Shown: positions 3,984 through 29,753, counted from the first letter of the stretch. The stretch is 29,753 nt of DNA from Gammaproteobacteria bacterium (GCA_016191795.1 JACPVK010000437.1:1-29753); one strand, 5' to 3'. The notes: generated by a model from the sequence alone, not told the origin. Numbers and translations: made by a program.

Positions 3984-6809
3984 TCAGGCTGACAAACGGG
4001 ATTTTTTATGTATGTTAGCCACGGCATTCTGCAAATCACCGAGTTGCAAACAAATCTGATCTTTCAGGGTGAGTAATTCAACACACAATGCCCTGGCCTG
4101 TTCGAAATCACCCGTTTCGCGCAGGCGAATAATTTCTGAACCAAGCTGATGCACTTTAACATGCACGGGCTCAATGGCACTAAATTCGGGCAAATGTCCA
4201 TAATTCTGTTTGCCCGGACCGTAACACCAGTGACCAAAACTGCAATGATGATGATCGACCAGCTGGGTATCGTTAACCGGCTGATCATTCTGTTCAACGG
4301 TGAGTAATACATTTTTAACCCAGCCGAGATGATCGTGCTGCGCCACCAGCAAGGGTAAATCACACAGTTCCCATTTTAAATCTGACCACATTCTCCATTG
4401 TGGTTCAGGTTGATACTGTTGCGCCCATAAAACAACTTCTTGCGCCGGCATGGGACGTGCAATACCAAAGCCCTGTGCAATATCGCAACCCAGTCGCATT
4501 AACAACACACCGTGATCAGACGTTTCCACACCTTCGGCAATCACATCACGGGCAAATAACCTGGCCATGCTGATAACCGCCTCGACCAGTGCCAGATCAT
4601 CTTCATCAACCAGCATGTCGCGCACAAATGACTGATCAATTTTAAGTGTGTTAACAGGCAAATGACGCAGATAGTTAAGTGATGAATAACCGGTACCAAA
4701 ATCATCCAGCGAAAATGTCACACCCAGGCCCTGGCATGCCGCAATAACCTTGCTGACCTGTGCCACATCGCCCAGCGCAACGGATTCAACAATTTCGATT
4801 TCCAGCAGTCGTGGCGCAACATTATTGTGCCGCGTCAGCAACATATTTAATCGATCAAAAAAATCATCGTTCTGAAAATGGGGCGCCGCAATATTCACAC
4901 TCACTGGCCATAGCATGCCCTGTTCTTGCCATAGCCCGATTTGCTGCAAGGCCTGATCAATAACCCACTCACCAATTTCAACGATCAGTTCAGATTGTTC
5001 TATCAAGGGGAGAAAATCGGGCGGCAACACCTGACCATCGTGCGGATGTTGCCAGCGTAGCAAGGCCTCAAAGCCAACAACCTGCCCGCTGCGCATATTC
5101 ACCTTGGGCTGGTAATGCAAACTCAATTCACCCTGCAACATGGCGGTGCGTATACGTTCCAGCGTCTGGTGACCGGCGCGGGTTTCTTCGTGCAATGTCA
5201 CATCAAACATTTGATAACGATTGCTGCCAATTTGTTTTGCCTGATACATGGCCTGATCGGCATGACGCATCAGTGTGTCGGCATCGGCATTATCCACAGG
5301 ATAAAGCGTCACCCCGATACAGGCAGATATATGTATCGTCACGCCTTCAATTGTATAAGGTGCTGCAATGGCATTAAGGATGCGTCGCACGGCGTGGTGT
5401 ACTTCTTCTTCCTCACCCACGTCATTAAGTATTAACACAAACTCATCACCACCCAGACGCGCCACGGTATCTTCGGCCCGCATGGATTTACGTAATCGAG
5501 TGCTCACTTCAATGAGTAACAAATCACCCACTGCATGCCCGTAACGATCGTTCACCGGCTTAAAGGCATCCAGATCCACCAGACAAACGCCAAGTAATCG
5601 ACGGTGACGTTTTGCCACAGCGATGGCCTGCTCGAAACGATCGGTTAATAAAATGCGATTGGGTAAACCGGTTAGCGCATCGTGACCCGCCTGCCATTGC
5701 ACCCTGCTCAACAGGCGATGTTTTTCGGTAACATCGTGAAACACCAGCACACATCCGGCAAGCGAACCGTCTGGCAAATGAATGAGTGCGGCGGAATCTT
5801 CAATATTAAAGTTTTCGCCATCACGACTGATTAACACACTGTGATTGGATAACTTTACGGTATTACCATGACGCAACGCCTGTTCAACCGGGGTTTCCAT
5901 AGGCTCACGCGTGGATTCCTCAATAACATGAAATATTTCACTAACAGGTTTACCCAATGCTTCTTCCAGAGGGTAGCCGGTAAGATGGCTGGCCACCTGA
6001 TTTAAAAAAGTGACCCGGGATTGCGCATCGGTGGTTATTACCGCATCGCCAATAGATGACAGGGTGACTTCTGCCAGTTCTTTTTCGGTGTGCAAACGTT
6101 GAATTAAATCGCTGATTTTTTGTGCCATGGCATTGAACGATTCGGACAACGCACTGATTTCTGCCGAATCACCCGGCGGTAAACGCGTACCCAGTTTGCC
6201 CTGTTGAAAATCCAGTGCGGCCGATTGCAATTCACGCATGCCACGCAAGGTGCCACGAAACAGCAGGAACGTCATCAAGGCGACCAGTAAAATCACCATG
6301 CCCAGTGCGCGCATCTGATTAGTAACTTGCTGCCAGCCTGGATATAAAACATGGTCCAGATCGTATGTCAGTGTCAAACTGCCATAGTTGACGCCACCCA
6401 GTTCCAGTGGAATGAAAAACTCTGATTGAATAATTCCGAGTTGCTCGCGAAACCACACGGGTGCATGGTTAGCCCCGACATCATCATCGACAACGCTGAG
6501 CTGACTGTTTTGATTTTGCCAGCTGATACGTTGCAAATCGGAACTGGCATTTACCTGATTTTGCAATATTGGTTTGATGGAGGAATAATCGCCACGTATC
6601 AAATAATCAATCAATACCGGCGGCATGGCCTGACGCACAATATTCGTTTCATCGGACAGGCGGGTATTCACCAGGTCCCTGATTTCCTGAATCAACATCA
6701 GGGTTCTTACGGTAGCCGCCATCAACACCACCAACGTAACGACACTGATCAGGCGAATCAGCAATGGTACCCGGCGCCAGCGTAATCTCATATAACCTAT
6801 GACATTCAT
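3984..6809 (-). CDS. Membrane-bound diguanylate cyclase/phosphodiesterase: TM-periplasmic-TM-HAMP-PAS-GGDEF-EAL-CZB
   Basis: Two TM helices, HAMP (EISALSESFNAM), PAS, RAED I-site five residues before GGDEF, EALLR, DDFGTGYSSL, AEGVE; C-terminal HLGW...CSFGHW...HVKVH (CZB 3His/1Cys). Confidence 0.93.
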   Translation of the reverse strand: MNVIGYMRLRWRRVPLLIRLISVVTLVVLMAATVRTLMLIQEIRDLVNTRLSDETNIVRQAMPPVLIDYLIRGDYSSIKPILQNQVNASSDLQRISWQNQNSQLSVVDDDVGANHAPVWFREQLGIIQSEFFIPLELGGVNYGSLTLTYDLDHVLYPGWQQVTNQMRALGMVILLVALMTFLLFRGTLRGMRELQSAALDFQQGKLGTRLPPGDSAEISALSESFNAMAQKISDLIQRLHTEKELAEVTLSSIGDAVITTDAQSRVTFLNQVASHLTGYPLEEALGKPVSEIFHVIEESTREPMETPVEQALRHGNTVKLSNHSVLISRDGENFNIEDSAALIHLPDGSLAGCVLVFHDVTEKHRLLSRVQWQAGHDALTGLPNRILLTDRFEQAIAVAKRHRRLLGVCLVDLDAFKPVNDRYGHAVGDLLLIEVSTRLRKSMRAEDTVARLGGDEFVLILNDVGEEEEVHHAVRRILNAIAAPYTIEGVTIHISACIGVTLYPVDNADADTLMRHADQAMYQAKQIGSNRYQMFDVTLHEETRAGHQTLERIRTAMLQGELSLHYQPKVNMRSGQVVGFEALLRWQHPHDGQVLPPDFLPLIEQSELIVEIGEWVIDQALQQIGLWQEQGMLWPVSVNIAAPHFQNDDFFDRLNMLLTRHNNVAPRLLEIEIVESVALGDVAQVSKVIAACQGLGVTFSLDDFGTGYSSLNYLRHLPVNTLKIDQSFVRDMLVDEDDLALVEAVISMARLFARDVIAEGVETSDHGVLLMRLGCDIAQGFGIARPMPAQEVVLWAQQYQPEPQWRMWSDLKWELCDLPLLVAQHDHLGWVKNVLLTVEQNDQPVNDTQLVDHHHCSFGHWCYGPGKQNYGHLPEFSAIEPVHVKVHQLGSEIIRLRETGDFEQARALCVELLTLKDQICLQLGDLQNAVANIHKKSRLSA

Positions 6810-7669
6810 GGGGATGGTTTCGTCACCAGCGTGTTACGATAAAACACTCGGTAATTCTCATAGTCGGCATCATTTGCAGGAACAAAAGCCAGCACTTTTT
6901 CACTTTTGATTTTAGCACTTACAAATTGCAGAACTTTTTGCCCTTCCTCATCTTTCGACATATCGATTAATACCTGACGTACTTTTTTCACGGTGGCGGC
7001 CGGCACACGCGGATGCGCCATGACAGCCAGATCCATATAAGGATCGGAAGACCACAGCACACGATATTTTAGCCCTTCGCGTCGTGAATACTGCGCCATG
7101 ACGTGATCATTAACCCCGGCTGCCGCTACATTGCCCAGGGCCAGATGTGTCATGGCTGATTCCTGATTTCCGGAAAACACCGGCGTCACCTTGACATGAT
7201 TTTGCAACAAGGTATCCATTGGCACCCAATAGCCGGTAAAGGCATCCGAATTGGCGAACGCCACCTGCTTGCCAGCAAGATCGGATAATGTTTGATAAGG
7301 TGAAGTGGTCAGCGTGACAATCTGACCGCGTATGCCTGAGGTATTAAAACGCGCCAGTAATTTAAAACCCAGCTTGTCGCGTTCGGGGGTGAACAGATGA
7401 TTGGTATAGACAAAATCGAAATCACCTCGTACCGTCATCGCGGTGGTTTCTTCTGCCACACTGCCCATTTTTAGTGCGAGTGGTACACCGGCTTTATGGC
7501 TGACATAAGTCAGTATGGGATTCCAGATTTCTGCGGTGGCAATGACCGAGCGTTGATTAAGCACACCGAAAAGCAAAGGCTCACCAGCATGAGCAATGCC
7601 GGCAAACAGCAAGCAGTACAGCGATAACAGAATTTGGCAGGTAGATCCCGTAACACGGCGGAACAACAT
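6806..7669 (-). CDS. PhnD-like (phosphate/phosphite/phosphonate-type) periplasmic substrate-binding protein
   Basis: Signal peptide; FGVLNQRS...WNPILTYVS, DFVYTNH, LSDLAGKQVAFANSDAFTGY. Stop overlaps the next start (ATGA). ATG 7669 follows a GGAG RBS. Confidence 0.85.
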   Translation of the reverse strand: MLFRRVTGSTCQILLSLYCLLFAGIAHAGEPLLFGVLNQRSVIATAEIWNPILTYVSHKAGVPLALKMGSVAEETTAMTVRGDFDFVYTNHLFTPERDKLGFKLLARFNTSGIRGQIVTLTTSPYQTLSDLAGKQVAFANSDAFTGYWVPMDTLLQNHVKVTPVFSGNQESAMTHLALGNVAAAGVNDHVMAQYSRREGLKYRVLWSSDPYMDLAVMAHPRVPAATVKKVRQVLIDMSKDEEGQKVLQFVSAKIKSEKVLAFVPANDADYENYRVFYRNTLVTKPSP

Positions 7670-9122: not shown

Positions 9123-9152
9123 AATGCCCTGACCGCATGGCGGTTATAAATA

Positions 9153-9341
9153 GGGCACCTCTAAAAACAGTCTTTTTCCGCGATAGCGGCGTCAGCTCCG
9201 TGCTCGAATCCTCATGTATTCCCACATACACTGCGGTTCTCGGCTCGGGCTTCCTGCTTCGCTCTACCTCCTTCATCCATGCAGTCGTGCGCGCGGTGCT
9301 TCCTTGCTCTCGCGAAAAAATCCAGGTTTTTAGAGGTGCCC
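9153..9341. mobile_element. MITE-like element, 189 bp
   Basis: Perfect 16-bp terminal inverted repeats GGGCACCTCTAAAAAC (9153-9168 / 9326-9341) with further imperfect subterminal similarity; AATA on both flanks (9149-9152, 9342-9345); no transposase. Confidence 0.7.
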
Positions 9342-14492: not shown

Positions 14493-14534
14493 CGCCATAC
14501 AACGATCTTATATAAACGTAAAACATAAGATAAG

Positions 14535-14562
14535 AAAAGCCCATTCAATTGAATGGGCTTTT
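14535..14562. terminator. Bidirectional intrinsic terminator
   Basis: Perfect 28-bp palindrome AAAAGCCCATTCAA/TTGAATGGGCTTTT between convergent genes. Confidence 0.85.
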
Positions 14563-14580
14563 TATTATGCGAATTGATGA

Positions 14581-14976
14581 TTAAACGCGGCTCATCACAC
14601 CAAAGCTTTTAACAAACGGCGATGCCATGCGTGGATCTTTTAACATGGACGTGTAATCACCTTTTATAAATTTGAGTTTACCGGTTGTAAAGGCAATGCC
14701 CAGACCCGTCATACCGGGTTCCTTGCTAAACCAGCTTTTCCACTGGCTATCGGATGCGCGCAAATCCCAGTTCAGAGTTTGATTACTGTATTCACCGGCC
14801 TCAACCACATGACCATTTTCCACTTTAATGTAGCCTACCGGTGCATCAGCACCTTCAAATCCGTAACCAATCACAGAATTAAACGATATTTTATTCAGCG
14901 CAGCTGAAAGTTCCGGCTCCTTGTTCCATTCTTCTTTATATTTATTCATCCAGTCGGCTTTAAACAAGTTACTCAT
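14581..14976 (-). CDS. SCP2 (sterol carrier protein-2)-like lipid-binding domain protein
   Basis: LFKADWMNKYKEEWN...WDLRASDSQWKSW...AFTTGKLKFIKGD pattern; GGGGA RBS. Confidence 0.7.
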   Translation of the reverse strand: MSNLFKADWMNKYKEEWNKEPELSAALNKISFNSVIGYGFEGADAPVGYIKVENGHVVEAGEYSNQTLNWDLRASDSQWKSWFSKEPGMTGLGIAFTTGKLKFIKGDYTSMLKDPRMASPFVKSFGVMSRV

Positions 14977-15113
14977 ATCTATCCCCTGTTGGTTTTTATG
15001 ATTTCATTTTGTGCTTGCCAGGCAGAAGGTAACGGCAAGCGGCGGTAGATTGAGATATGTTTAAGACAGGGTCAAGCCAGGCAGATCTTATATTTGGAAC
15101 ACTTCACGTTTTT

Positions 15114-15139: not shown

Positions 15140-15180
15140 TTGCAAGAACTGTTGATGCGGATGTGACAACAATAAAAAGA

Positions 15181-15735
15181 TTATCGAGCATCTAATAAAA
15201 CGATTGCATCACCTGAATTCATTGTCCCATTGACAGATTCACTACTTAACACGGTAGATTGCCCATTCTTTATATCAATATATTTCGCTTCAACAGAATC
15301 ATGATTATTAACCTGCCCGGCTTGCTCGTACAAGCCGCCACCATTATTGTCATTCAAAATAATCTCATAATAAGCCATGTTCTGTTTCAGAAGCATCTGA
15401 TCATTGTCGACTTTTATGATTGCTATACCTGGCAATATCTCAGTTCCCTGATAAAACCAGCGTGCTGGTTCATTATTCACCCTTATCAGGGCACTGGCTG
15501 TTTTACTATCGGCTAATAGCGTTCCCTCCAAACTTAATGCAGGGAAGGCTATTTTGGCAGATTCTGACTGGCTTGATTGAAGGGTGTTATTTTCTGTTTG
15601 ACGGGATATGTCGGCCGCTACAATTTCCTGTGTCGCAGGACTTAAACGATCATGCCCTGTCATATACAACATTATTATGGCACCAAAAATTAAAATAATT
15701 AGAGCAATTCTGGCATTACGATTATTTATTATCAT
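15181..15735 (-). CDS. Type II secretion GspC/PilP-like protein (N-terminal TM + HR domain), stand-alone
   Basis: Single N-terminal TM, linker, then LSLEGTL....ASALI.......F..G.EI.PG..I.KV..DQ.LL.......I.L. Confidence 0.7.
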   Translation of the reverse strand: MIINNRNARIALIILIFGAIIMLYMTGHDRLSPATQEIVAADISRQTENNTLQSSQSESAKIAFPALSLEGTLLADSKTASALIRVNNEPARWFYQGTEILPGIAIIKVDNDQMLLKQNMAYYEIILNDNNGGGLYEQAGQVNNHDSVEAKYIDIKNGQSTVLSSESVNGTMNSGDAIVLLDAR

Positions 15736-15908
15736 AAGTGGCCTTGCCTGAATAACACCTCAACAAACTGAATTAACTTCAATATACAAAGCATCAGACC
15801 GGTCGAATAAACAATTCGAAATTACTGATAATCTATCGTGCATCCGTATAATCAAAAATCAAGACCGACAACACAACGAGATGATATAAATCAGTGCCAT
15901 TTATATAT

Positions 15909-16811
15909 TTAATATTTCGTTGCAAAAAATTGTGCAATCAATGGCTGAAAATCAGTTAACCCATCTACACCACTGGCGGATACACACCCCTTAAGGTAAT
16001 ACGTATAATTCCCTGCGGCATTGACAGGATAAATAACCTGCATGCTATAAGGCGCATATTGACCTATTGAACAAGGCTGGTTCACTGCTGTATAAAAATA
16101 TGATATTCGATCAAATGTACTACCAGCGGATGCATCATCCAATGCAAGTCGTGCTTGTGTACTAGCGTCATACAAACACATTAATCCGGCTGCTGACACT
16201 AATACATAACCACTACTTGGAGCTGCTACAGTAACCGATGTAATATTACTAAAATTGTATGTACTACCGCTGCAAATACCCGTCATATAGCTGGATACCT
16301 GGCCAAAGATAGCACTCGCGTATTCTATCCCTGGCTCATTACTTGTGTGAGTACTGGTAATACCCGCGTTAGACACATCGATGGTTACATATCCTGTCGT
16401 ACCTCCACCAGTCAGGCCAGACCCTGCCGTTACACCTGTAATATCACCACCGGAATTATCATCCAGCTCACATACCACCGATCCATCAGCATTAACAGTA
16501 CGTATTGCGTAACCGGCAGCACAACTGCCGGTTACACGATTCTGTTTGGCTGTATCGAGATTAGTAATGGCGACCGAATTGGATGTAATAGCTGCTGCGT
16601 TACTATTAATATCACTGGTATTGGTAGTGATGCGCGCATTGTTATCATCTACGGCTGCTTTGACAGCTGCGAAATTGGCATTGACATCGGCTGCAATAGC
16701 CGGTGTACCGGCCGTGAATGTATTGGGCACAGTGAGACTGTCGGCCAGCAACGCATCAGCCATGATTGTCATTAAAATTGTTGTTAAAAAATATTGGGTT
16801 GAAGTTTTCAT
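15909..16811 (-). CDS. Exported fibre/adhesin-like hypothetical protein (300 aa)
   Basis: Signal peptide; NTFTAGTPA.AADVNANF; Asn-rich heptads; CAAGYAIRTVNADGSVVC; Gly-rich GDITGVTAGSGLTGGG; beta-rich C-terminal domain; GGGAG RBS. Confidence 0.8.
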   Translation of the reverse strand: MKTSTQYFLTTILMTIMADALLADSLTVPNTFTAGTPAIAADVNANFAAVKAAVDDNNARITTNTSDINSNAAAITSNSVAITNLDTAKQNRVTGSCAAGYAIRTVNADGSVVCELDDNSGGDITGVTAGSGLTGGGTTGYVTIDVSNAGITSTHTSNEPGIEYASAIFGQVSSYMTGICSGSTYNFSNITSVTVAAPSSGYVLVSAAGLMCLYDASTQARLALDDASAGSTFDRISYFYTAVNQPCSIGQYAPYSMQVIYPVNAAGNYTYYLKGCVSASGVDGLTDFQPLIAQFFATKY

Positions 16812-16823
16812 GATATTTCTCCC

Positions 16824-17003
16824 TTATTGCCAGTTTTTTTCATCCCAGTTAGCCTGATCCCACACAGCCTCTGTCGAAGGCGCAGGGTTTGGTGCAGGCG
16901 GTGCCGAATCGCCACCGCCGCCGCAGGAAACCAGAAAGAAGCTGCATAGCAACATGATGGGCAATATAAAAGCGGCTGACCTGATGTGTCGTTTGTTTTC
17001 CAT
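16824..17003 (-). CDS. Small lipoprotein, 59 aa (MENKRHIRSAAFILPIMLLCSFFLVSCGGGGDSAPPAPNPAPSTEAVWDQANWDEKNWQ); not in ORF track
   Basis: AAGGAG RBS; lipobox LVSC (Cys27) + GGGG; Pro-rich linker; WDxxxWDxxxW tail; stop 12 bp before the next gene; translated by hand. Confidence 0.8.
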   Translation of the reverse strand: MENKRHIRSAAFILPIMLLCSFFLVSCGGGGDSAPPAPNPAPSTEAVWDQANWDEKNWQ

Positions 17004-17072
17004 CCTGGCGACTCCTTCATATACAAGTTAAATTGTGGTTTTCAACTGCCCTGTCCATAGCAAATGCCGTAT

Positions 17073-17124
17073 ATGAAAACTAACCCTATAGAAGGACATT
17101 GCCTATCCCGTAAATACGGTACAA
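17073..17124 (-). promoter_or_regulatory. Conserved promoter/operator module, copy A
   Basis: ATGAAAACTA-N21-TATCCCGTAAATACGGTACAA; matches the copy at 20302-20353 in 10/10 and 18/21 positions of the two blocks. Confidence 0.65.
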
Positions 17125-17319
17125 ACGGGATGTGACCAGGGCATGCGCATCATCTTATTGATATATGTCATGAATATTGATGAGTAATCTCGCTTATTGT
17201 CATATCACCTTTCCAGGTGACTACCCATGTCACGCCAATTCATCCAGAATAAAACGATATCTGAATATTCAGCATAAACCGTGTAAATTTCCGTAATAAC
17301 CGCCGAATTGGAGATCACA

Positions 17320-17973
17320 ATGTATTCGGTATTATTAGTTGAGGACGAAGACAGTACTCGCGAGCGTCTGGCACAGGTGATAGAAAATCACCCGGATCTC
17401 AAACTCATTGAAAAAGATGCCACCGTAGCAGACGCCATGGCCTGTTTAAAACGTGAACAGCCGGATGTATTGTTGTGTGATCTGGGTTTACCCGATGGTA
17501 ATGGCATTGAACTCATCAACGAAGTTCGTAACCGAAAATATAAAACCGAAACCATGGTTATTACCGTGTTTGGTGATGAACAGCATGTGGTATCTGCCAT
17601 TGAAGCGGGGGCAACTGGTTATCTTCTAAAAGATGGACGCGCAGATTATATCGCTGAGAGTATTATACAAATGATGGCAGGTGGCTCACCTATTAGCGCA
17701 TCGATTGCCCGCCACTTGTTAAAACGTTTCAAGATCAGCTCACACGATAACTATCAGGATGAAATACAACAAAAACTCAGTAAACAGGAAATCACCGTCT
17801 TGAGTTATCTGGCCAAGGGCTTTAGCTGCGCGGATATTGCCGGTTTTCTGGATATTTCATGCCATACAGTTACGACACATGTTAAACGTATTTATCGTAA
17901 GCTGGCTGTACACTCACGTAGTGAGGCGGTATACGAAGCCCATAAAATGGGAATTATCAGCCTGGATGAATAG
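17320..17973 (+). CDS. NarL/LuxR-family DNA-binding response regulator
   Basis: LLVEDE, PDVLLCDLGLPDGNG (phospho-Asp), GATGYLLK; C-terminal LuxR HTH (LSKQE..VL..LAKG...TVTTHVKRIYRKLAVHSRSEAV); GGAG RBS before ATG 17320. Confidence 0.95.
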   Translation: MYSVLLVEDEDSTRERLAQVIENHPDLKLIEKDATVADAMACLKREQPDVLLCDLGLPDGNGIELINEVRNRKYKTETMVITVFGDEQHVVSAIEAGATGYLLKDGRADYIAESIIQMMAGGSPISASIARHLLKRFKISSHDNYQDEIQQKLSKQEITVLSYLAKGFSCADIAGFLDISCHTVTTHVKRIYRKLAVHSRSEAVYEAHKMGIISLDE

Positions 17974-18034
17974 TACCGATATACACACCGCATCGTATTA
18001 ATACGCCGTTAACTACACACAATTTTTCATAATC

Positions 18035-18058
18035 AAAAGGCCCGCTATTTGCGGGCCT
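18035..18058 (-). terminator. Intrinsic terminator of the FN3 lipoprotein gene
   Basis: AGGCCCGC-TATTT-GCGGGCCT stem with a U-run on the minus strand. Confidence 0.7.
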
Positions 18059-18086
18059 GTGCTTTGTGTTTTTGTGAAACGTCAGG

Positions 18087-20225
18087 TTATCGTCCAATAT
18101 ATTCAATTATCGGCCAATCCGCTGGACCATTCCTGTAATAAAAACTTCCAAAAGGATAATTCAACTGAATATTTTCACAAGTATTGCATAACCTGAATGT
18201 AATAATTGACGCATAATTCGGCCATGAAACCAGTGTTGCTGTTCCTGAGCCTACATAAGCCCCATCATCATAGAATGTCCAGCCACCACTACTGGTGAAA
18301 TTAAAACGCGCAGTATGCACCAGCGTTGAGCACGAATAACAATAGTAGACGCCATCCCATGAGCGTGAACTCGAAAATCCACTCAACATATTACCTAACG
18401 TTGGATTATTAACTGTCAACGTATAGGTTTGCCCTGCTGTCACCGTTACATTGCTGGTACCGAGAAACCAGATATCACGAGTTGTACTGGAATTGTAGAA
18501 TCCCACACCCCAGGCCACGCTCACACTGCCGCCGGAAGTAAATACATAATCCGCACTACCCGATGGCAAAATGACATAGGGATAATTGATTTTCTGTACG
18601 GAGTTTAACCTCAGATCTATCATGTCATACTTGGTGTTATTGATAATTCTCAGTGTAGCCGTAGTATCTCTGGCCACTGTTATGCACACTGGCGCACTCC
18701 ATACACTCGCCAAAGACACACGATAGCAGTACGTGCCATTAGCCTTGTTACTGAACGCATATTGATAAGGCACTGTCGTGTCATACGATAAGTATGAAGT
18801 AGGGCTGGAAAAACTGGTGTCAGAATCTTCCTGAATTGGCCAGTTTGAAGCCGCCAGGCCTGTTACCGACCAGGACAAGGTATAACTACCCGTCGTGCTT
18901 GTTGTTGGCAAACTCAAAGTGATTGATGTTGAAATTACCGTATTGAATATAGCGGTAACAGTCATATTACTACCCAGACTTACTGTGCAGTTACTTCCTG
19001 AGGTGCTGGTGCAACCACTCCAGCTTACAAATGTAGAACCTGAACTGGCCACTGCCGACAAGACAATGCTGGTGCCACTTGTTGCGACATGCGTACAGTC
19101 AGATCCACAGTTAATACCGGTACCGGTTACCGTACCTGATCCAGTACCGGATTTGTTCACGGTTAAGGTGTAATTAACTACGGCAGATTGTGTTGTTGCA
19201 TTTGCGGTTGCAGCGATACTGGGCCCTGCATTGTTATACGCAAGTACACGATAATAATACGGCGTTGAAGCCTGCAGCCCTGATGAATCAGTATACGTTG
19301 TACTATTCGCTGCAATTTGTGCTACTTGTGAATAACTGTTTGTATTTAATCCACGCTCAATCCGATAACCACTTTCATTGGTTGCCATATCTGTCCAGTT
19401 GAGTCGAATGCTTGAAGCTGAAAGCGCCGTTGCACTCAAACCTGCTGGTGCAGCAGGCAGGGTTTGTGAAGCAGCCGAGGTTGTGGCCTGTACCATACCT
19501 GAATACGCAGAGTTGCCATAGGCATTGCTTGCCCGCACCTGGTAGTAATACGTTGTTGATGCATTCAGATTCATATCGGTATATGACGTTACATTCGTTG
19601 TCACATTACCTATCTGGGAAAAATTATTTGGTGAGCCAATAGCACGCTCAATCAGAAAACTGGATTCATTATTCGAATTATCCGACCAGGACAAACTGAT
19701 ACTGCTTGATGTGTAACTCGTTACAGACAGACCAGTAGGTGCATCAGGCGCAACGGAAGAACCACCGCCTGTGCGAGTACCGCTTACTACTGTCGAACCG
19801 CTACACAATAGCGTTCCATTTTGCGTATTACGTGCCTCCCAATAGGCAGTACCTGTAAACGTATCGCCACTGATAGTCAGTGAACTACTGGTTATAGTGA
19901 TCCATAATCCGTCGTAATTATCATAATATTGCCCTGTCCATGACAAGCTATTACCGGTTACGGTACCGCTAAACGTACCGTCATTAGTCACCACAGATAT
20001 ACTACTGCCAGACTGCGATATCGTTACCGTATATTGATCTGTATCACCCGAGCCGCCGCATTGTGTGTTGTTGATATCCTCATAAACTGACCAGGTACCC
20101 GTGACATCAGCTGGTGTCACACTTCCACCACCACCTCCACCACCGCAGGCAACCAGAAACAAACCAAGTGATATGAAAAATGGCAGCAGGATAAGATGCT
20201 TGAAGACTTGCAGATATTTTTTCAT
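18087..20225 (-). CDS. Ser/Thr-rich surface lipoprotein with fibronectin type III repeats and an InlB-B-like bacterial repeat (712 aa)
   Basis: Lipobox LVAC (Cys27) + Gly run; two clear FN3 (APDAPTGLSV...WSD...YYYQVRASN; PAAPAGLSA...WTD...YYYRVLAYN); YTLTVNKSGTGSGTVT...CGSDC...FVSWSGC. Confidence 0.88.
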   Translation of the reverse strand: MKKYLQVFKHLILLPFFISLGLFLVACGGGGGGGSVTPADVTGTWSVYEDINNTQCGGSGDTDQYTVTISQSGSSISVVTNDGTFSGTVTGNSLSWTGQYYDNYDGLWITITSSSLTISGDTFTGTAYWEARNTQNGTLLCSGSTVVSGTRTGGGSSVAPDAPTGLSVTSYTSSSISLSWSDNSNNESSFLIERAIGSPNNFSQIGNVTTNVTSYTDMNLNASTTYYYQVRASNAYGNSAYSGMVQATTSAASQTLPAAPAGLSATALSASSIRLNWTDMATNESGYRIERGLNTNSYSQVAQIAANSTTYTDSSGLQASTPYYYRVLAYNNAGPSIAATANATTQSAVVNYTLTVNKSGTGSGTVTGTGINCGSDCTHVATSGTSIVLSAVASSGSTFVSWSGCTSTSGSNCTVSLGSNMTVTAIFNTVISTSITLSLPTTSTTGSYTLSWSVTGLAASNWPIQEDSDTSFSSPTSYLSYDTTVPYQYAFSNKANGTYCYRVSLASVWSAPVCITVARDTTATLRIINNTKYDMIDLRLNSVQKINYPYVILPSGSADYVFTSGGSVSVAWGVGFYNSSTTRDIWFLGTSNVTVTAGQTYTLTVNNPTLGNMLSGFSSSRSWDGVYYCYSCSTLVHTARFNFTSSGGWTFYDDGAYVGSGTATLVSWPNYASIITFRLCNTCENIQLNYPFGSFYYRNGPADWPIIEYIGR

Positions 20226-20301
20226 GGCAACACCTTCCTTAGAGATTTATATTTATTGCTGCCAGAGCAAATAGCAAAACAATAAATTGGAATTGATTGG
20301 C

Positions 20302-20353
20302 ATGAAAACTACCCTAAATGATGTATTCCAGGTATCCCCTAAATCCGGGACAA
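20302..20353 (-). promoter_or_regulatory. Conserved promoter/operator module, copy B
   Basis: ATGAAAACTA-N21-TATCCCCTAAATCCGGGACAA, plus a second 7-2-7 dyad TACCCTA-AA-TGATGTA (20310-20325). Confidence 0.65.
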
Positions 20354-20576
20354 GAATTGTTATCTGCATAATAAATATGAAAATTTGTTGCTATATATCA
20401 AATTAACAGGTGTTAACTAATTACATAGCTGTAATCATGGCACGAGTGGTACACACCCCCGATAAAGCTGTATATTTGGTTCATAACATCAACATCATCA
20501 GATCGGACTAATATAAGTCACCCTGTTTAATAACTTTGTAATTAACTGTGAATACAACCCAACTAAAAAAACAATA

Positions 20577-22451
20577 ATGCCCATCATTTCCATTCAGCTA
20601 TCAATGATCTTACGTGGTGTAGCCCTGGTTCTTTTATTTATTACTCAAACAGTCATGGCAAATGAGTTGGGCGCGCCTGTTATTAGCTTCCAACAAGCCT
20701 GGTTTAATGATTCACAACACGACACACCGCCGCCCCCTTATTTGGCTAGCTGGCGGCAAGTTTATTTACCTGACAACTGGTATCGATCCCATCGAAAGGA
20801 TGCCTCGCCTGCCTGGTATCGCCTGCAATTCGATATAGCTGATGCAACTGAAACCTGGGGTATATATTTGTCCGCTGTTAATACCAATGCAGAAGTCTGG
20901 CTAAATGGTGAATACATAGGTAATGGTGGCAGCATGCATGACCCGGCTGCGCGTAACTGGTATCGCCCGCTGTATTTTACCGTACCCAAAAATCATCTGC
21001 TGTATGGTAGCAACTCTCTCTTTATCCAATTGCTGCCAAAAAAATCCGGTTTTGGATTTTTAGGGCAGGTTTATATTGGCCCGGATGTTCTACTTCGGCC
21101 TGTTTACGAACATCGTATGCTGCTCAAACAAACCGTTACCGGTGCCTCAACATTATTGCTACTCAGCATCGGCGCTTTTACTAGCTTAATCTGGTTTAAA
21201 CGCCGCAAGGAAAGCCTCTATGGCTGGTTTGCAGCAGGCTGTTTCTCCTGGGCATTTTTTGTATTTGATATGTATGCACAACATATTCCAGTGCAGGAGC
21301 GATTATGGGATACGCTGGTTTTCTCCGCTGTTGGCTGGCTGGTTATATTTATGACAATATTTTTTTATCGATTCTGGAATATACATTACCCGCGCTATGA
21401 ACGTTTTTTAATATCTTTTGGATTAATCGGCACGACCATACTCTATCTCGTGGGTGACAAATATTTTTATTTTGTTTCATCCTATATCTGGGATAATTTG
21501 CTAATCATTTTTTCTACCTACATGACCTGGTTTATTATCACCCAATGCCTGAAGTGGCCATCCAAAGAAGCCTGGTTACTGGCGATAGCACTAGGCCTCG
21601 TCGTGTCTTTTGGCGGCCACGACAATCTGGTACAAATGGGCATACTTGAAGTTGACAGCATTCGATTACTGCCCTATGGCGCACCCTTCTTTCTTGGTGT
21701 AGTTGTATGGATGCTGGTAAATAGATTCGTAACAGCCCTGGATGAGAAAGAGCAGCTCAATTACGAACTGGACCGGCGCGTACAAACCAAAAGCCTGGAA
21801 CTGGAAGAATATTACACGCACATTAAAAAAATAGAACGCGAAAAAATACTGGCTGAAGAACGAGAACGCATTATGCGCGACATGCATGATGGTACCGGCG
21901 GGCTACTGGTTGCGGCATTGGCTCAGGTTGAAAAAGGCAATATAAACAAATCCGTATTGAGTGAGATACTGCAAAATGCCCTGGATGACATCCGCCTGAT
22001 GATTGACTCACTGGATCCGGTTGATGAAGACATTGTAGCCGTGCTGGCTATGTTTCGCTCCCGTATGGAAGCCAGGCTACATTACAGTGGTATCAGAATT
22101 GTATGGAATATAAAAGATGTACCTGTTATACCTGAATTGGGTCCGGAAAGAGTTTTACAACTGACTCACATTCTTTATGAAGCTGTAACCAATATTATCA
22201 AGCATGCCAACGCGGATACCATAACATTTCGTACTGGCATAACCACCGAAGAGAATAATCATAAAAATATTTTTATTGAAATTGAAGACAATGGCACAGG
22301 CCTCGGCACCGACATAGAAGAAGGCAACGGCATCGCTAACATGTATTACCGTGCAGCGACAATAAGCGCACGCCTGGAAATATCAAACACTGAAAATGGC
22401 GCTGTTGTTCGCATTCTACTACCGCTGTCGTACTCAACAATAGAGCCTTAA
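20577..22451 (+). CDS. 7TMR-DISM sensor histidine kinase (sugar-binding-like periplasmic beta-sandwich, 7 TM, HisKA_3, HATPase)
   Basis: WYRLQF...AEVWLNGEYIG...GSNSLFIQL extracellular domain; seven hydrophobic segments; ERERIMRDMHD, EAVTNIIKHA, IEDNGTG, GNGIANM. Confidence 0.9.
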   Translation: MPIISIQLSMILRGVALVLLFITQTVMANELGAPVISFQQAWFNDSQHDTPPPPYLASWRQVYLPDNWYRSHRKDASPAWYRLQFDIADATETWGIYLSAVNTNAEVWLNGEYIGNGGSMHDPAARNWYRPLYFTVPKNHLLYGSNSLFIQLLPKKSGFGFLGQVYIGPDVLLRPVYEHRMLLKQTVTGASTLLLLSIGAFTSLIWFKRRKESLYGWFAAGCFSWAFFVFDMYAQHIPVQERLWDTLVFSAVGWLVIFMTIFFYRFWNIHYPRYERFLISFGLIGTTILYLVGDKYFYFVSSYIWDNLLIIFSTYMTWFIITQCLKWPSKEAWLLAIALGLVVSFGGHDNLVQMGILEVDSIRLLPYGAPFFLGVVVWMLVNRFVTALDEKEQLNYELDRRVQTKSLELEEYYTHIKKIEREKILAEERERIMRDMHDGTGGLLVAALAQVEKGNINKSVLSEILQNALDDIRLMIDSLDPVDEDIVAVLAMFRSRMEARLHYSGIRIVWNIKDVPVIPELGPERVLQLTHILYEAVTNIIKHANADTITFRTGITTEENNHKNIFIEIEDNGTGLGTDIEEGNGIANMYYRAATISARLEISNTENGAVVRILLPLSYSTIEP

Positions 22452-22467
22452 AATGATGCGCCAACAA

Positions 22468-22494
22468 AAAAGCCAGAGATGTTCTCTGGCTTTT
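22468..22494. terminator. Bidirectional intrinsic terminator
   Basis: AAAAGCCAGAGA-TGT-TCTCTGGCTTTT between convergent genes. Confidence 0.85.
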
Positions 22495-22517
22495 AATCAC
22501 TATACTTTCAAATCGCT

Positions 22518-23699
22518 TTACAAACCATATTTCACAATCAGATTGATCATGGTCACCTGCGAAGAAAGCAATGCAGACTCGGTAGCCACTATATTGGTGC
22601 TTTGCAACTGCTGGGTGAGTACGATTTGATCAGCCTGCAGACCAATGTTATCCGCCATTTCCAGAATCAAATCCGCTTCTTCACCAATGCTGTTGGCCAT
22701 TAAGCCAATATCGCTGGACATGTTCAGAATACTGTCTACAGAAGCGGCCAGTGTTGGCGTGGCAGTAACTGAATTAATACTATTTAGCGCTACGGTATAA
22801 CCCTTGAGTGCCGTGGCCAGTGCGGCGACTTTTCCACTGAGATCAGCCAGCGTAATCATGGATTGCTGGTTAACGGTCATGGTGCTCATAACGGCGTTCA
22901 CATCAATCAGGCTGTTTAAACTCGTAACCGTGCTTTTCAGCGAGGCCACACTGGTTTCAATACGCGCCAGTTCTGTCGCGGAATTAACGGCCGTTAACAC
23001 CACGGCGTTCATATCAGTTTCGAGGAGTGTGGAAATACTCAGCTGATTGAGCAAATCCGTGTTGTAAACAGACGTGTCTATTTGTGACACCAGATTGATC
23101 ACATTAGTCTGTGCAGTGAGCGTGTTTTGCAAGGTTAAATTAAGATTGCTGCTCTGGATATTCTGCGTGGTGATAATGCGATCTGCCATCAAGCCGATGT
23201 TATCCGACATCACCAGAATACGATCAGCCATCTCGCCAATACGATCCGCCATGGTGCCAATATCATCGGACAAGGCAAGCATCAAACTAATGCCTTCCGC
23301 TGTATTGAGCTGATCCACTGAAGCGGACAAGGTATTCAGACTGGTAGACAAACGTACAGCTTCACTACCAATACCAACATACACACTGCTGAGACTGTCC
23401 AGCGTTGTCAGCATACCGGTATCCAGTGTAATCGGTGACGCCAGCGATGAATTAACTGTGGCGATATTATTTATATGCGTTGAAGACGCGCTTTTAGCGC
23501 TTTTCAAAGGACCGCAAATATTATCCGCCGTGAGTGTGGTACCGGCCAGTTTGGTTTTAAGGCTGTTGGCTTCGGTGAGCAAGGCCTGTAAATCAGTTGC
23601 CAGTGTTGCCTGCGCGTTGCCAGAAAATGCAACACTTGTAAGAAACAGGCTCATTATAACCAGTGCATGCGCCATCTGTTTATGCATAAAATTTTTCAT
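22518..23699 (-). CDS. Exported helical protein with MADRI heptad repeats, paralogue A (393 aa)
   Basis: Signal peptide (...SGNAQA); IGTMADR-IGEMADR-ILVMSDN-IGLMADR at about aa 147-174 with a degenerate second copy at about aa 331-358; ends KYGL. Confidence 0.85.
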   Translation of the reverse strand: MKNFMHKQMAHALVIMSLFLTSVAFSGNAQATLATDLQALLTEANSLKTKLAGTTLTADNICGPLKSAKSASSTHINNIATVNSSLASPITLDTGMLTTLDSLSSVYVGIGSEAVRLSTSLNTLSASVDQLNTAEGISLMLALSDDIGTMADRIGEMADRILVMSDNIGLMADRIITTQNIQSSNLNLTLQNTLTAQTNVINLVSQIDTSVYNTDLLNQLSISTLLETDMNAVVLTAVNSATELARIETSVASLKSTVTSLNSLIDVNAVMSTMTVNQQSMITLADLSGKVAALATALKGYTVALNSINSVTATPTLAASVDSILNMSSDIGLMANSIGEEADLILEMADNIGLQADQIVLTQQLQSTNIVATESALLSSQVTMINLIVKYGL

Positions 23700-23726
23700 T
23701 AAATATTTCTCCAGATAAAACTCGGC

Positions 23727-24908
23727 TTACAAGCCGTAGGTTTTTATAACAGTAACAGTGGTATTGGTAGCCGTCGTGAGTGAACCTTGCGTTAACGAAA
23801 CATTACTTTGTTGCAGGTCTTGAGTTGTCACGATGCGTGTAGACATTTCACCAATGTTATCGGTCATGATGATGATACGATCCACCATTTCCATAATGCG
23901 GCCACTCATAATGCCAACATCACGGGTGAGCACCAGCATGCTGGCTGATGCATCTTTTAATATGGTTTTGTTTGTTTTAGGCGCCAGTTTCTTAACGCTG
24001 TCCGCAAACTTGTTCAGCGATGCTGCCAGGGCCTTGTTAATATTCGATAAATCGCCGGCCATGGTGAGGGTGTCAGCATTGGTGTACTGGCTGGCTATTG
24101 CACTGTCATTCATTATCAAAACGTAGAGTGCATTTACCTGCGTCAGATAAGCTGTCGTCTCTGATTTAATGCGCGCCAGTTCAATACTCATGTTCAGTGT
24201 TGTTAACACGGTGAGATTCATTGACGTTGATGACGCATTGCCCTGGGTCACCAGACTGGCCAGTGACGGGTTGTAAACCAGTGTGCTGATAGTGTCGCTT
24301 AAAATAACGGCATTCTGCTGTGTTGCCAGCATCGCATTTTGTACACTCGCAAGGTTAGTACTTTGCAATTGCTGCGTAACCAGAATGCGATCCGCCATCA
24401 GACCAATATTGTCAGCCATGACCAATATACGGTCGGCCATTTCACCAATGCGATCCGCCATGGTGCCAATGTCGGTAGATAAACGTAACATCGCCGACAA
24501 CATGGCTGTGTAATCAATCACATTAGCTGATGTAGACAACGTGTTCAGACTCAATGACAAATTTTTAATATTGTTAGCAATACTTACATTGATGTTTGAC
24601 AAATCATTCAATGAAGTCAGGCTTGCCGCCTCCACACTAAACGGCGAGGTGATACTGGCCTTTACCGTTTCAGTCGACGCGATAAAAGCTCTCAGCGACT
24701 TGCTGGCATTGCCAAGATCGGTACAACCGGTTGCGGTGGTTAAGTTGATGCCGGCAAGTTGTGTATTAACGGCCTGCCCCTGAGTAACCAGTGCAGCGAG
24801 ATCAGTGGAAAGTTGTGATGCAGAAAAAGCCGAAGGCGAAACCACCATCAAACCCAATGCTAATAACATGGCATTTAGCCAATGGAGAAAAAAACGATAA
24901 CCAGACAT
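23727..24908 (-). CDS. Exported helical protein with MADRI heptad repeats, paralogue B (393 aa)
   Basis: Signal peptide (...PSAFSA); IGTMADR-IGEMADR-ILVMADN-IGLMADR with a second copy VGIMSGR-IMEMVDR-IIIMTDN-IGEMSTR; ends TYGL; ungapped against paralogue A. Confidence 0.85.
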   Translation of the reverse strand: MSGYRFFLHWLNAMLLALGLMVVSPSAFSASQLSTDLAALVTQGQAVNTQLAGINLTTATGCTDLGNASKSLRAFIASTETVKASITSPFSVEAASLTSLNDLSNINVSIANNIKNLSLSLNTLSTSANVIDYTAMLSAMLRLSTDIGTMADRIGEMADRILVMADNIGLMADRILVTQQLQSTNLASVQNAMLATQQNAVILSDTISTLVYNPSLASLVTQGNASSTSMNLTVLTTLNMSIELARIKSETTAYLTQVNALYVLIMNDSAIASQYTNADTLTMAGDLSNINKALAASLNKFADSVKKLAPKTNKTILKDASASMLVLTRDVGIMSGRIMEMVDRIIIMTDNIGEMSTRIVTTQDLQQSNVSLTQGSLTTATNTTVTVIKTYGL

Positions 24909-25218: not shown

Positions 25219-25470
25219 TCTGATTATTATTTGTCCAGCAGGAAGGATGAAAATGTCCTTACAGATTAGGGGCTTAGGCTGTATCCATGGGTAAAACGAG
25301 AATCGAAATGTCATTGGAATCAAGGGAGTAACCCTGACTTTTGGAAAGACTGTCAGGTTCTGGCAACCCGGATTTGTTATGAAATGAACCGCAGCGACAA
25401 GCCATCGATCACTGTCTCCCGGGGCAAGTCCAGGCCACTGGCCGAAGGTGTTCAGGTGTTTGAAGTCTCA

Positions 25471-25508
25471 CCCTCTCCCCGACCCTCTCCCGCCAGCGGG
25501 AGAGGGAG
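25471..25508 (+). repeat. CCCTCTCCC-type REP-like element
   Basis: CCCTCTCCCCGA followed by the hairpin CCCTCTCCCGC-CA-GCGGGAGAGGG. Confidence 0.65.
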
Positions 25509-28814: not shown

Positions 28815-28842
28815 GCCACCGGATGTCATTGTCACACCCCCC

Positions 28843-28871
28843 TTGAAAGTTCTCTATTTGTTCTCTATGAT
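28843..28871 (+). promoter_or_regulatory. sigma70 promoter of dinB with a GTTC-N7-GTTC LexA-type box in the spacer
   Basis: TTGAAA(28843)-17 nt-TATGAT(28866); GTTC-TCTATTT-GTTC at 28849-28863. Confidence 0.7.
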
Positions 28872-28903
28872 GATCTCACCCTATGTTTTTAAGGCAGGCC
28901 ATC

Positions 28904-29753
28904 ATGAGCTTCTACCCCGTCACTCCCCAACCCAAAGCCCATTGGGACCGCGCCATTATCCTGATGGATATGAACGCCTTTTTTGCCTCCATTGAGCAGG
29001 CTGATCACCCCGAATGGCAGGGCCGCGCCATCGGCATTACCAACGGCAAAACCGGCACCTGTATCATTACCTGCTCTTACGAAGCCCGCATGCGTGGCAT
29101 TAAAACCGGCATGCGCGTCAAAGACGCCAAAAAGCTGTGCCCGGATTTCATTCAGGTAGCAGCGCGGCCGGAACGCTATGCCGCCGTGTCGTCGCGCATC
29201 ATGCGTGCACTCGAAGACATCACACCGGATATTGAAATTTTCAGTGTTGACGAAGCTTTTCTGGATATCACCACCGTACAGCCATTACTCGGCACACCGG
29301 CAGAAATTGGCCAGCTGGTGAAACGTAAAGTGTTTGAAGTCTCGGGTTTATGCTGCTCCATTGGCGTTAGTGGCGACAAAACCACCGCCAAATACGCCGC
29401 CAAATTAAACAAACCCAATGGCCTGACCGTGATTCCACCCTGGCAGGCACGTGAGACTTTAAAGAATGTACCGGTCACAGAACTGTGTGGCATAGCCGAC
29501 GGCATTGGTGCATTTCTCGCACAACGTGGCGTGCATGTTTGTGGCGACATGGAACACATGCCCATCAGCGTGCTGGCACAGCGCTTTGGTAATCTGGGCC
29601 GACGCATCTGGCTAATGTGCCAGGGGCTGGACCCGGACGGTTTGCATCAGGATGTGCCACAACCCAAATCCATTGGCCACGGCAAAGTCATGCCCCCCAA
29701 CACCCGCGACATTGAGGTGCTCGAAACCTATTTAATGCACATGGCGGAAAAAG
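28904..29753 (+). CDS. dinB: DNA polymerase IV (Y-family), 5' part; runs off the window; not in ORF track
   Basis: Hand translation from ATG 28904: IILMDMNAFFASIEQ, CSYEAR, FSVDEAFLDIT, CSIGVSGDKTTAKYAAKLNKPNG. Confidence 0.93.
   Translation, partial: MSFYPVTPQPKAHWDRAIILMDMNAFFASIEQADHPEWQGRAIGITNGKTGTCIITCSYEARMRGIKTGMRVKDAKKLCPDFIQVAARPERYAAVSSRIMRALEDITPDIEIFSVDEAFLDITTVQPLLGTPAEIGQLVKRKVFEVSGLCCSIGVSGDKTTAKYAAKLNKPNGLTVIPPWQARETLKNVPVTELCGIADGIGAFLAQRGVHVCGDMEHMPISVLAQRFGNLGRRIWLMCQGLDPDGLHQDVPQPKSIGHGKVMPPNTRDIEVLETYLMHMAEK

Follow-up and report, generated by a model that had tools for sequence, protein, structure and literature searches.

A Probable Accessory Island Encoding a Predicted Two-Component Circuit for Envelope Remodelling in an Uncultured Gammaproteobacterium

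Introduction

Receptors of the 7TMR-DISM class are common, but little is known about what they bind and what they control directly. Which genes such a receptor might control is the question raised by a 29.8-kb contig (29,753 nucleotides) from an uncultured groundwater/sediment gammaproteobacterium, on which a histidine kinase (HK) with a predicted seven-helix membrane sensor and a NarL/FixJ-type response regulator (RR) are interleaved with six genes for exported or membrane-anchored proteins. The window analysed here is the whole of this contig, one of 471 in a metagenome-assembled genome (MAG) that is 74% complete. An earlier note had proposed that the eight genes constitute one module, controlled by the two-component system and inherited as a unit. 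Our analysis favours something smaller: we consider it probable that positions 15174-22465, containing six of the eight genes, are a compact accessory island encoding a self-contained envelope-remodelling circuit, driven by the HK and RR via predicted operators, and that the two remaining genes, MADRI1 and MADRI2, are independent of it.

Results

The Six-Gene Unit

All eight open reading frames (ORFs) lie where the earlier note had placed them, on the strands it gave, and its description of six of the products as exported or membrane-anchored agrees with our reading of the translations by eye. From left to right, the first six genes encode mini-GspC, i.e., a bitopic membrane protein of 184 aa with a GspC-HR-like (T2SSC) periplasmic domain (15181-15735, minus strand); a fibre-like secreted protein of 300 aa (15909-16811, minus); a tiny lipoprotein of 59 aa (16824-17003, minus); the RR (17320-17973, plus); an FN3 lipoprotein of 712 aa (18087-20225, minus); and the HK (20577-22451, plus). 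MADRI1 and MADRI2 follow (22518-24908, minus). The lipoboxes of the 59-aa and 712-aa proteins (LVSC and LVAC, respectively) each have their cysteine at residue 27, followed by GGGG; the 300-aa protein and both 393-aa MADRI proteins have signal peptides, and the 184-aa protein has a single N-terminal transmembrane (TM) helix.

A search with the fibre stalk located a contig of another gammaproteobacterial MAG (L138) that carries, within 7 kb and in this order, an HK, an RR, a first predicted operator (op1), a 54-aa lipoprotein that ends in the same Trp-rich tail as its counterpart in the window, a fibre, a 130-aa T2SSC protein, a second predicted operator (op2) and an FN3 lipoprotein. Identities to the window are 68% for the HK, 84% for the RR, 59% for the fibre stalk, 41% for mini-GspC and 45% for the FN3 lipoprotein (residues 24-349). 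The HK and RR genes of L138 are adjacent, on the strand opposite to the remaining module genes, and the flanks differ from those of the window, consisting of flagellar genes and a GGDEF-EAL gene. On another contig (G023:C241), an HK, an RR, a tiny lipoprotein and two fibres occur together. By this comparison, the genes for mini-GspC, the fibre, the tiny lipoprotein, the RR, the FN3 lipoprotein and the HK are a conserved unit. Thus, inheritance as a unit survives for the six genes that L138 holds together, and fails for the MADRI genes, which are found as pairs elsewhere without the HK; gene adjacency alone had over-called the unit by two genes. Relative to L138, the FN3 gene and op2 appear to have moved in between the RR and HK genes of the window, which would account for the unusual split of that pair.

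The AT-richness that the note had seen by eye was borne out by a GC scan. The segment 15174-22465 has a GC content of 43.2%, versus 48.7% for the genome, 47.3% for the left flank and 51.0% for the right flank, and is within the lowest 1.6% of 7.3-kb windows in its own genome. The six-gene block was not found in two MAGs of the same genus (G001, 88% complete; G002, 58% complete). A single contig of run X2, which comes from an independent study of freshwater sediment, links position 15173 directly to 22466, so that precisely these six genes are missing from it; otherwise, contigs from runs X1 and X2 cover the block. The junction at 15173/22466 has just 5 nt of microhomology, and Pfam scans of the island genes and most of the larger flanking ORFs revealed no integrase or transposase families. 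We read 15174-22465 as an accessory island, as judged from its composition and its pattern of presence and absence.

Terminators partition the block, as the note had remarked. A strong bidirectional intrinsic terminator occupies the gap between the RR and FN3 genes (18038-18058); 7 of its 8 stem pairs are GC, and each strand has a T-run. A second bidirectional terminator (22466-22495), with a GCCAGAGA/TCTCTGGC stem between an A-run and a T-run, lies between the HK and MADRI1 genes and marks the right edge of the island; it was seen by inspection of the sequence, having been missed by the automated hairpin scan.

The Kinase and the Regulator

The RR matches the Pfam families Response_reg (5.6e-22) and GerE (1.5e-17), and the motifs VEDED, DLGLPD and LLKD, i.e., the receiver acidic pocket, the phospho-Asp and the conserved Lys, are present. 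Its ORF (17308-17973) opens with a TTG at 17308; because a GGAG lies 6 nt ahead of an ATG at 17320, and because translation from there yields 217 aa, the same length as the orthologues, this ATG is the likely start. The RR reaches no NCBIfam equivalog cut-off (NarL NF007935, 125.6 bits versus 250; MadR, 134.5 versus 300). The HK matches 7TMR-DISM_7TM (PF07695; 29.0 bits, with a cut-off of 29), HisKA_3 and HATPase_c in Pfam, and residues H437, N539, D571, G573, G575, G583 and G585 are invariant across 9 orthologues. Full-length relatives of the HK, with 28-38% identity, are distributed across several genera of the family and are also present in other Gammaproteobacteria; the contig scan for kinase relatives used a generic H-box pattern, and full-length relatives account for 7 of its 80 loci. 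Our literature searches found no account of this 7TMR-DISM/HisKA_3/NarL subfamily.

The note had paired this kinase with this regulator, and comparison with other genomes agrees. The RR gene lies beside the HK gene in 15 of the 15 loci that were read, as well as in L138, mostly with the RR first and 0-190 nt between them. Since the orthologues are adjacent in these 16 other loci, the RR and HK are, on comparative grounds, a cognate pair, and the FN3 gene between them in the window is an unusual departure. The genes around orthologous pairs nearly always encode lipoproteins, PEP-CTERM proteins or signal-peptide proteins.

Many of the RR-HK orthologues are accompanied by a small secreted protein with no Pfam family, ending C-x-[YF]-V-[ST]-x-[GQ]-G-M-x-x-[KR]-x-C-D (L031 1811-2491, L032 8950-9660, L037 12653-13396 and L041 3566-3985). 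In the Y-type subgroup it sits between the RR and HK genes, and it could serve the HK as an accessory partner in the periplasm.

An AF2 model of HK residues 1-400, built from a 16-row alignment (pLDDT 86.5, pTM 0.81), has a periplasmic β-sandwich at residues 31-171 that resembles the sugar-binding domain found at the N-terminus of GH2 glycosidases (~130 residues aligned at an rmsd of 2.2-2.8, Z 14-15), followed by seven helices between residues 170 and 399 that match GPCR-like bundles (Z ~13.5). The carbohydrate-binding-like sensor fold that the note had put forward is therefore what the model displays. The predicted sensor fits the 7TMR-DISM concept of a sugar-binding-type sandwich joined to seven TM helices. 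Its ligand is probably a carbohydrate or a surface ligand, with sensing of glycans being suggested by fold resemblance alone.

Two known kinds of system invite comparison. The 7TMR-DISM proteins RetS and LadS of Pseudomonas aeruginosa, which are tied to surface and biofilm functions, likewise combine a carbohydrate-binding-type β-sandwich, seven TM helices and a kinase output. However, they are hybrid HisKA kinases acting via GacS/Rsm, without a dedicated NarL partner or a local operator, whereas in our HK the 7TMR-DISMED2 domain went undetected by Pfam and the highest-ranking fold matches are N-terminal domains of GH2 proteins; RetS and LadS were absent among the fold matches listed for residues 31-171. 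With NarX-NarL and NarQ-NarP, the pair shares the HisKA_3 H-box kinase core and a regulator composed of a receiver and a GerE helix-turn-helix, but their sensors have a periplasmic four-helix bundle plus HAMP rather than a β-sandwich and seven TM helices.

A Palindrome Read as the Operator

The promoters of the two lipoprotein genes in the window share a 52-bp module (17073-17124 and 20303-20353, both oriented on the minus strand), with a local alignment score of 23 compared with 13.7 on average, and 22 at most, in 500 shuffles. Within it is a 16-bp inverted repeat with the core TCCC-N8-GGGA, often in the form ATCCCATA-NN-TATGGGAT. The first copy, op1 (17106-17121, TCCCGTAAATACGGTA on the plus strand), is 103 nt upstream of the ATG of the tiny lipoprotein gene, and the second, op2 (20335-20350, TCCCCTAAATCCGGGA on the plus strand), is 110 nt upstream of that of the FN3 gene. 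Equivalents of both lie upstream of the same two genes in L138, with TTGTnCC...GGGATA common to all four promoters. When the window was scanned allowing 3 mismatches, just op1 and op2 were found, with none upstream of the MADRI2, fibre or mini-GspC genes.

In other genomes, the palindrome flanks orthologous RR-HK pairs at nine loci. Across the 15 loci (i.e., with L138 excluded), the 9 kb of sequence no more than 300 bp from a pair contains 9-10 exact TCCC-N8-GGGA sites, compared with 4-5 in the remaining 234 kb, of which 3 are upstream of neighbouring exported-protein genes. The sites are 43-140 nt upstream of the starts of genes for lipoproteins, PEP-CTERM proteins or signal-peptide proteins. 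Only 8 such sites, op2 among them, occur in the 2.8 Mb of the host genome, and the longer form ATCCC-N8-GGGAT occurs genome-wide at 2-4 sites in G013, G016 and G023 and at none in G057; further genome-wide sites (G013:C7, G023:C93) lie among toxin-antitoxin-like genes or within a coding region. RRs with the recognition helix HTV..H.K.IYRKL pair with TCCC-N8-GGGA, while for a subgroup with YYTVTTHIKNIY(T/N/S)KL, TACCAAG-NN-CTTGGTA is found upstream of the RR gene in 3 of 5 loci. Because of this distribution at RR-HK loci and the co-variation with the recognition helix, we read the palindrome, by phylogenetic footprinting, as the predicted RR operator. A looser motif, CCnnATTTAnnGG, had 33 matches in the genome with no pattern, and was dropped.

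NarL binds inverted heptamers in a 7-2-7 arrangement, and the predicted 16-bp operator has the same geometry. The half-site sequence differs, as do the targets, which would here be envelope proteins.

The alternative that survives best is that the palindrome is merely an autoregulatory site of the RR-HK pair, or belongs to another regulator, and that the exported-protein genes are uncontrolled passengers of a variable region. Many of the sites are in divergent intergenic regions beside the RR gene, where autoregulation alone could account for them, and the cassette of tiny lipoprotein and fibre genes is found elsewhere without this circuit. However, other sites are downstream of the HK gene or 1.6-6.7 kb away, not beside the RR gene but directly upstream of exported-protein genes (L029 11048, L037 9818, L040 9739, L034 13872 and 18922, L035 14859, L138 8734). 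Moreover, between the window and L138 the spacing is kept from site to lipoprotein ATG, and not from site to RR or HK gene, and the cassettes in kinase-less genomes are without the palindrome as well. We therefore judge the passenger explanation unlikely, and retain control of the exported-protein genes by the RR as the probable arrangement.

The DNA encoding the lipobox and glycine linker is 83% identical over 29 nt between the two lipoprotein genes (16912-16940 versus 20134-20162). Given that they also have the promoter module in common, this likeness points to duplication of a segment comprising promoter and signal peptide.

The Exported Proteins of the Island

Neither the tiny lipoprotein nor the fibre protein has a Pfam or NCBIfam match. 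The tiny lipoprotein, with its lipidation cysteine and a C-terminal tail of the form W-D-x3-W-D-x2-N-W, has C27, W48, W53, D54, N57 and W58 invariant in an alignment of four sequences, and its gene is directly upstream of a fibre gene in seven loci (the window, L138, G004, G005, G023, L139 and L140, the last from Mariprofundus). The fibre protein has a conserved N-terminal stalk (residues 1-129), in which the family motif PNTFTAG..A.AA.VNANF is followed by a coiled coil, and a variable head. Heads of the stalk family may be C1q, FGE-sulfatase or phage Collar domains; the heads of the window and L138 fibres are unrelated, and for the former the Atlas gave a lead to C1q-like heads. The fibre protein weakly matches coiled-coil stalk fragments of trimeric autotransporter adhesins (E 0.02), and no YadA-type β-barrel anchor was found, the 300-aa protein being without any Pfam family. 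When three copies of fibre residues 24-110 were modelled with three copies of lipoprotein residues 27-59, the median score of the complex predictions was 0.02, with one run at 0.60.

The arrangement recalls SadB, a lipoprotein that assists display of the trimeric autotransporter fibre SadA, in that a small lipoprotein gene is immediately upstream of a coiled-coil fibre gene. It differs in that no autotransporter β-barrel anchor was found here, in that the mature lipoprotein is only ~33 aa with a Trp-rich tail, and in that the fibre heads are of C1q, lectin or collar types.

The T2SSC score of mini-GspC itself (21 bits) is below the cut-off of 27. Just 10 homologues were found among 1.84 billion representatives, and three of them (P0125, P0127 and P0132) pass the cut-off with 30.6-67.6 bits. 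The gene is directly downstream of the fibre gene in the window, L138 and L142, and of a fibre or secreted-protein gene in L138, L142 and L141. Like the HR proteins GspC and PilP of type II secretion and type IV pili, mini-GspC has an N-terminal TM anchor and a candidate HR-type domain. Unlike GspC, the members of its family are 125-184 aa long, without a PDZ or coiled-coil C-terminal domain (Pfam gave no PDZ match for mini-GspC), and the gene lies outside a gsp operon; canonical GspC and GspD are encoded on contig C394 of the same genome, which holds further secretins. Additional neighbouring genes in L138, L140, L141 and L142 yielded no informative Pfam matches.

The FN3 lipoprotein has an N-terminal domain, two FN3 domains (fn3, 5.4e-16, in two stretches) and more Ig-like domains. 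Beyond the region conserved in L138 (residues 24-349) the C-terminal parts differ, and no full-length orthologue was found in 40 relatives.

By gene order and recurrence, the tiny lipoprotein, fibre and mini-GspC genes are a conserved cassette, and the fast-changing heads suggest a surface structure under diversifying selection. A bolder proposal, which we advance with considerable doubt, is that the trio represents an undescribed, secretin-dependent route by which Gram-negative cells display receptor-binding fibres, separate from the pilus and autotransporter pathways, and that in the island it has been captured, together with the FN3 lipoprotein, under a portable 7TM sugar-sensor/operator platform that recruits lineage-specific cargo.

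Descent of the fibre and its neighbours from a prophage, tailocin or contractile injection system is very improbable. Stalk-family members can have phage-type heads (Collar, C1q), the nearest Atlas feature clusters are viral (scores 0.86, a lead only) and one stalk motif, in L038, belongs to a fusion with a VgrG-like Phage_GPD protein. Against this, the fibres have signal peptides of the Sec type, a lipoprotein gene lies ahead of the fibre gene, neither the window nor L138 contains phage structural, integrase or lysis genes, and the cassette is located among ordinary chromosomal genes. The L038 protein (4721-6877; 718 aa), which has a signal peptide, the N-terminal stalk motif, and Phage_GPD and Phage_base_V domains, is encoded divergently from an RR-HK orthologue.

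The MADRI Pair

The original proposal, i.e., that all eight genes including MADRI1 and MADRI2 form one two-component-controlled module inherited as a unit, draws on the fact that the MADRI genes are adjacent to the others, share their strand with the remaining genes for exported proteins and themselves encode secreted products. Against it, MADRI pairs without a related kinase alongside occur in G001 (of the same genus), G012, G024, G021, L116, L117 (Sulfurimonas) and L118, and L138 has the six-gene module with no MADRI gene. In the window itself, there is no operator upstream of MADRI2, a terminator separates the HK and MADRI1 genes, and the drop in GC content stops at 22465. Inclusion of the MADRI genes thus seems to us very improbable. 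Because tandem pairs occur without the kinase, lack the operator and here lie outside the AT-rich block, the pair is better regarded as an autonomous cassette, apart from the six-gene unit that we take to be the island. The gap between its two genes contains just a weak 5-bp stem.

The MADRI family comprises no fewer than 934 homologues of ~390 aa, nearly always encoded as a tandem pair, and has no Pfam family (DUF7162 reaches 25.3 bits with MADRI2, versus a cut-off of 27, and MADRI1 has no match). Its members carry labels including Sulfurimonas (a complete genome), Acidiferrobacterales and Desulfurivibrionaceae, and lie in unrelated neighbourhoods. The pair in G001 (73% and 72% identity) is beside dinB and a 131-aa gene (95% identity) that in the window lies to the left of the island; G001 has neither the six other genes nor the GAF-PAS kinase.

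Each MADRI protein is an internal duplication. The AF2 model of MADRI1 is all-α (pLDDT 75), and its C-terminal half (207-381) resembles the five-helix bundles of fungal Mp1p/AfMp4p (150 of 152 residues, rmsd 2.6), with a Z of 14.4 that is barely above the level usual for helical bundles. Foldseek against the PDB gave just designed helical repeats (TM <0.3) and phmmer against the PDB no match, while the AFDB clusters comprise family members and generic helical proteins; matches from both Atlas and AFDB also include fungal HsbA and cell-wall proteins. The likeness to Mp1p/AfMp4p is thus one of a lipid-binding five-helix bundle fold in the C-terminal half of MADRI1, whereas the MADRI proteins lack sequence similarity to them, are bacterial, are duplicated twice (two halves, two genes) and have Met-rich heptads. 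The resemblance hints at a Met-lined cavity that might accommodate a hydrophobic ligand.

When L023 (G001:C73) was compared with the window (14530-15112 and 28839-29001), the flank of the 131-aa gene was found to run almost straight into dinB. As the two almost meet in G001, the segment 15112-28839, containing the island, the MADRI pair and the GAF-PAS kinase, is arranged differently in two species of one genus.

Discussion

How might the circuit work? On our reading, the periplasmic β-sandwich of the HK would sense an external ligand, and the HK would phosphorylate the RR, as expected for these families. Conservation suggests that a dimer of the phosphorylated RR would then bind the 16-bp inverted repeat T(C/A)CC-N8-GGGA, which is centred ~38 nt upstream of a -10-like TAGGGT (read by eye) and ~100 nt upstream of the starts of the two lipoprotein genes. 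Binding would activate one unit comprising the tiny Trp-tail lipoprotein, the modular fibre and probably mini-GspC, and a second consisting of the FN3 lipoprotein gene. Since both sites are in divergent intergenic regions, op1 and op2 may also autoregulate the RR and HK. More speculatively, mini-GspC might couple the fibre to a secretin for export, and the tiny lipoprotein might tether it at the outer membrane.

Several observations weigh against this reading and are the reason that we call it no more than probable. The cassette of lipoprotein and fibre genes occurs without this HK and without the operator in G004, G005, L139, L140 and L142, and for G004 and G005 the sequence upstream of it shows no alignment to the promoter module; as it can occur without kinase and operator, we regard the cargo as captured by the circuit and not a dependent part of it. 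One half-site of op1 is degenerate (GGTA), and three loci (L036, L031 and L032) have no recognizable palindrome at the RR-HK pair (L019 is cut at a contig end). No terminator or operator was found between the fibre and mini-GspC genes, and their co-transcription is assumed. In the sensor of the HK, Pfam detected neither 7TMR-DISMED1 nor 7TMR-DISMED2 (E ≤ 0.01). The X2 junction is just a hint, consisting of one contig at a depth of 2.2 with a 30-nt side and 90% likeness; the lipoboxes, signal peptides and the TM helix of mini-GspC were assigned by eye; and the source MAG is incomplete and fragmented.

If it holds, the subfamily would be a very simple case of 7TMR-DISM signalling, in which a single kinase and a single NarL-type regulator act through a predicted 16-bp operator on a local regulon of just two promoters, and the circuit could be rebuilt in a laboratory host for ligand screening and tests of signalling. 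The operator with its recognition-helix co-variation, the tiny lipoprotein/fibre/mini-GspC cassette and the widespread MADRI gene pair are all defined here, have no Pfam or NCBIfam family and were not found described in our literature searches.

Two repeated elements also lie in the window. A GC-rich hairpin at 25469-25508 (CCCTCTCCCGCCAGCGGGAGAGGG) is a widely repeated element, at which contig depth leaps to 15-113 in all four runs and exactly at whose borders many contigs have loose ends. A MITE-like repeat of ~190 bp at 9152-9341, with the terminal inverted repeats GGGCACCTCTAAAAAC ... GTTTTTAGAGGTGCCC, has ~5 full or near-full and ~20 partial copies in the genome, and copies also border the segment with the MADRI pair and 131-aa gene in G001.

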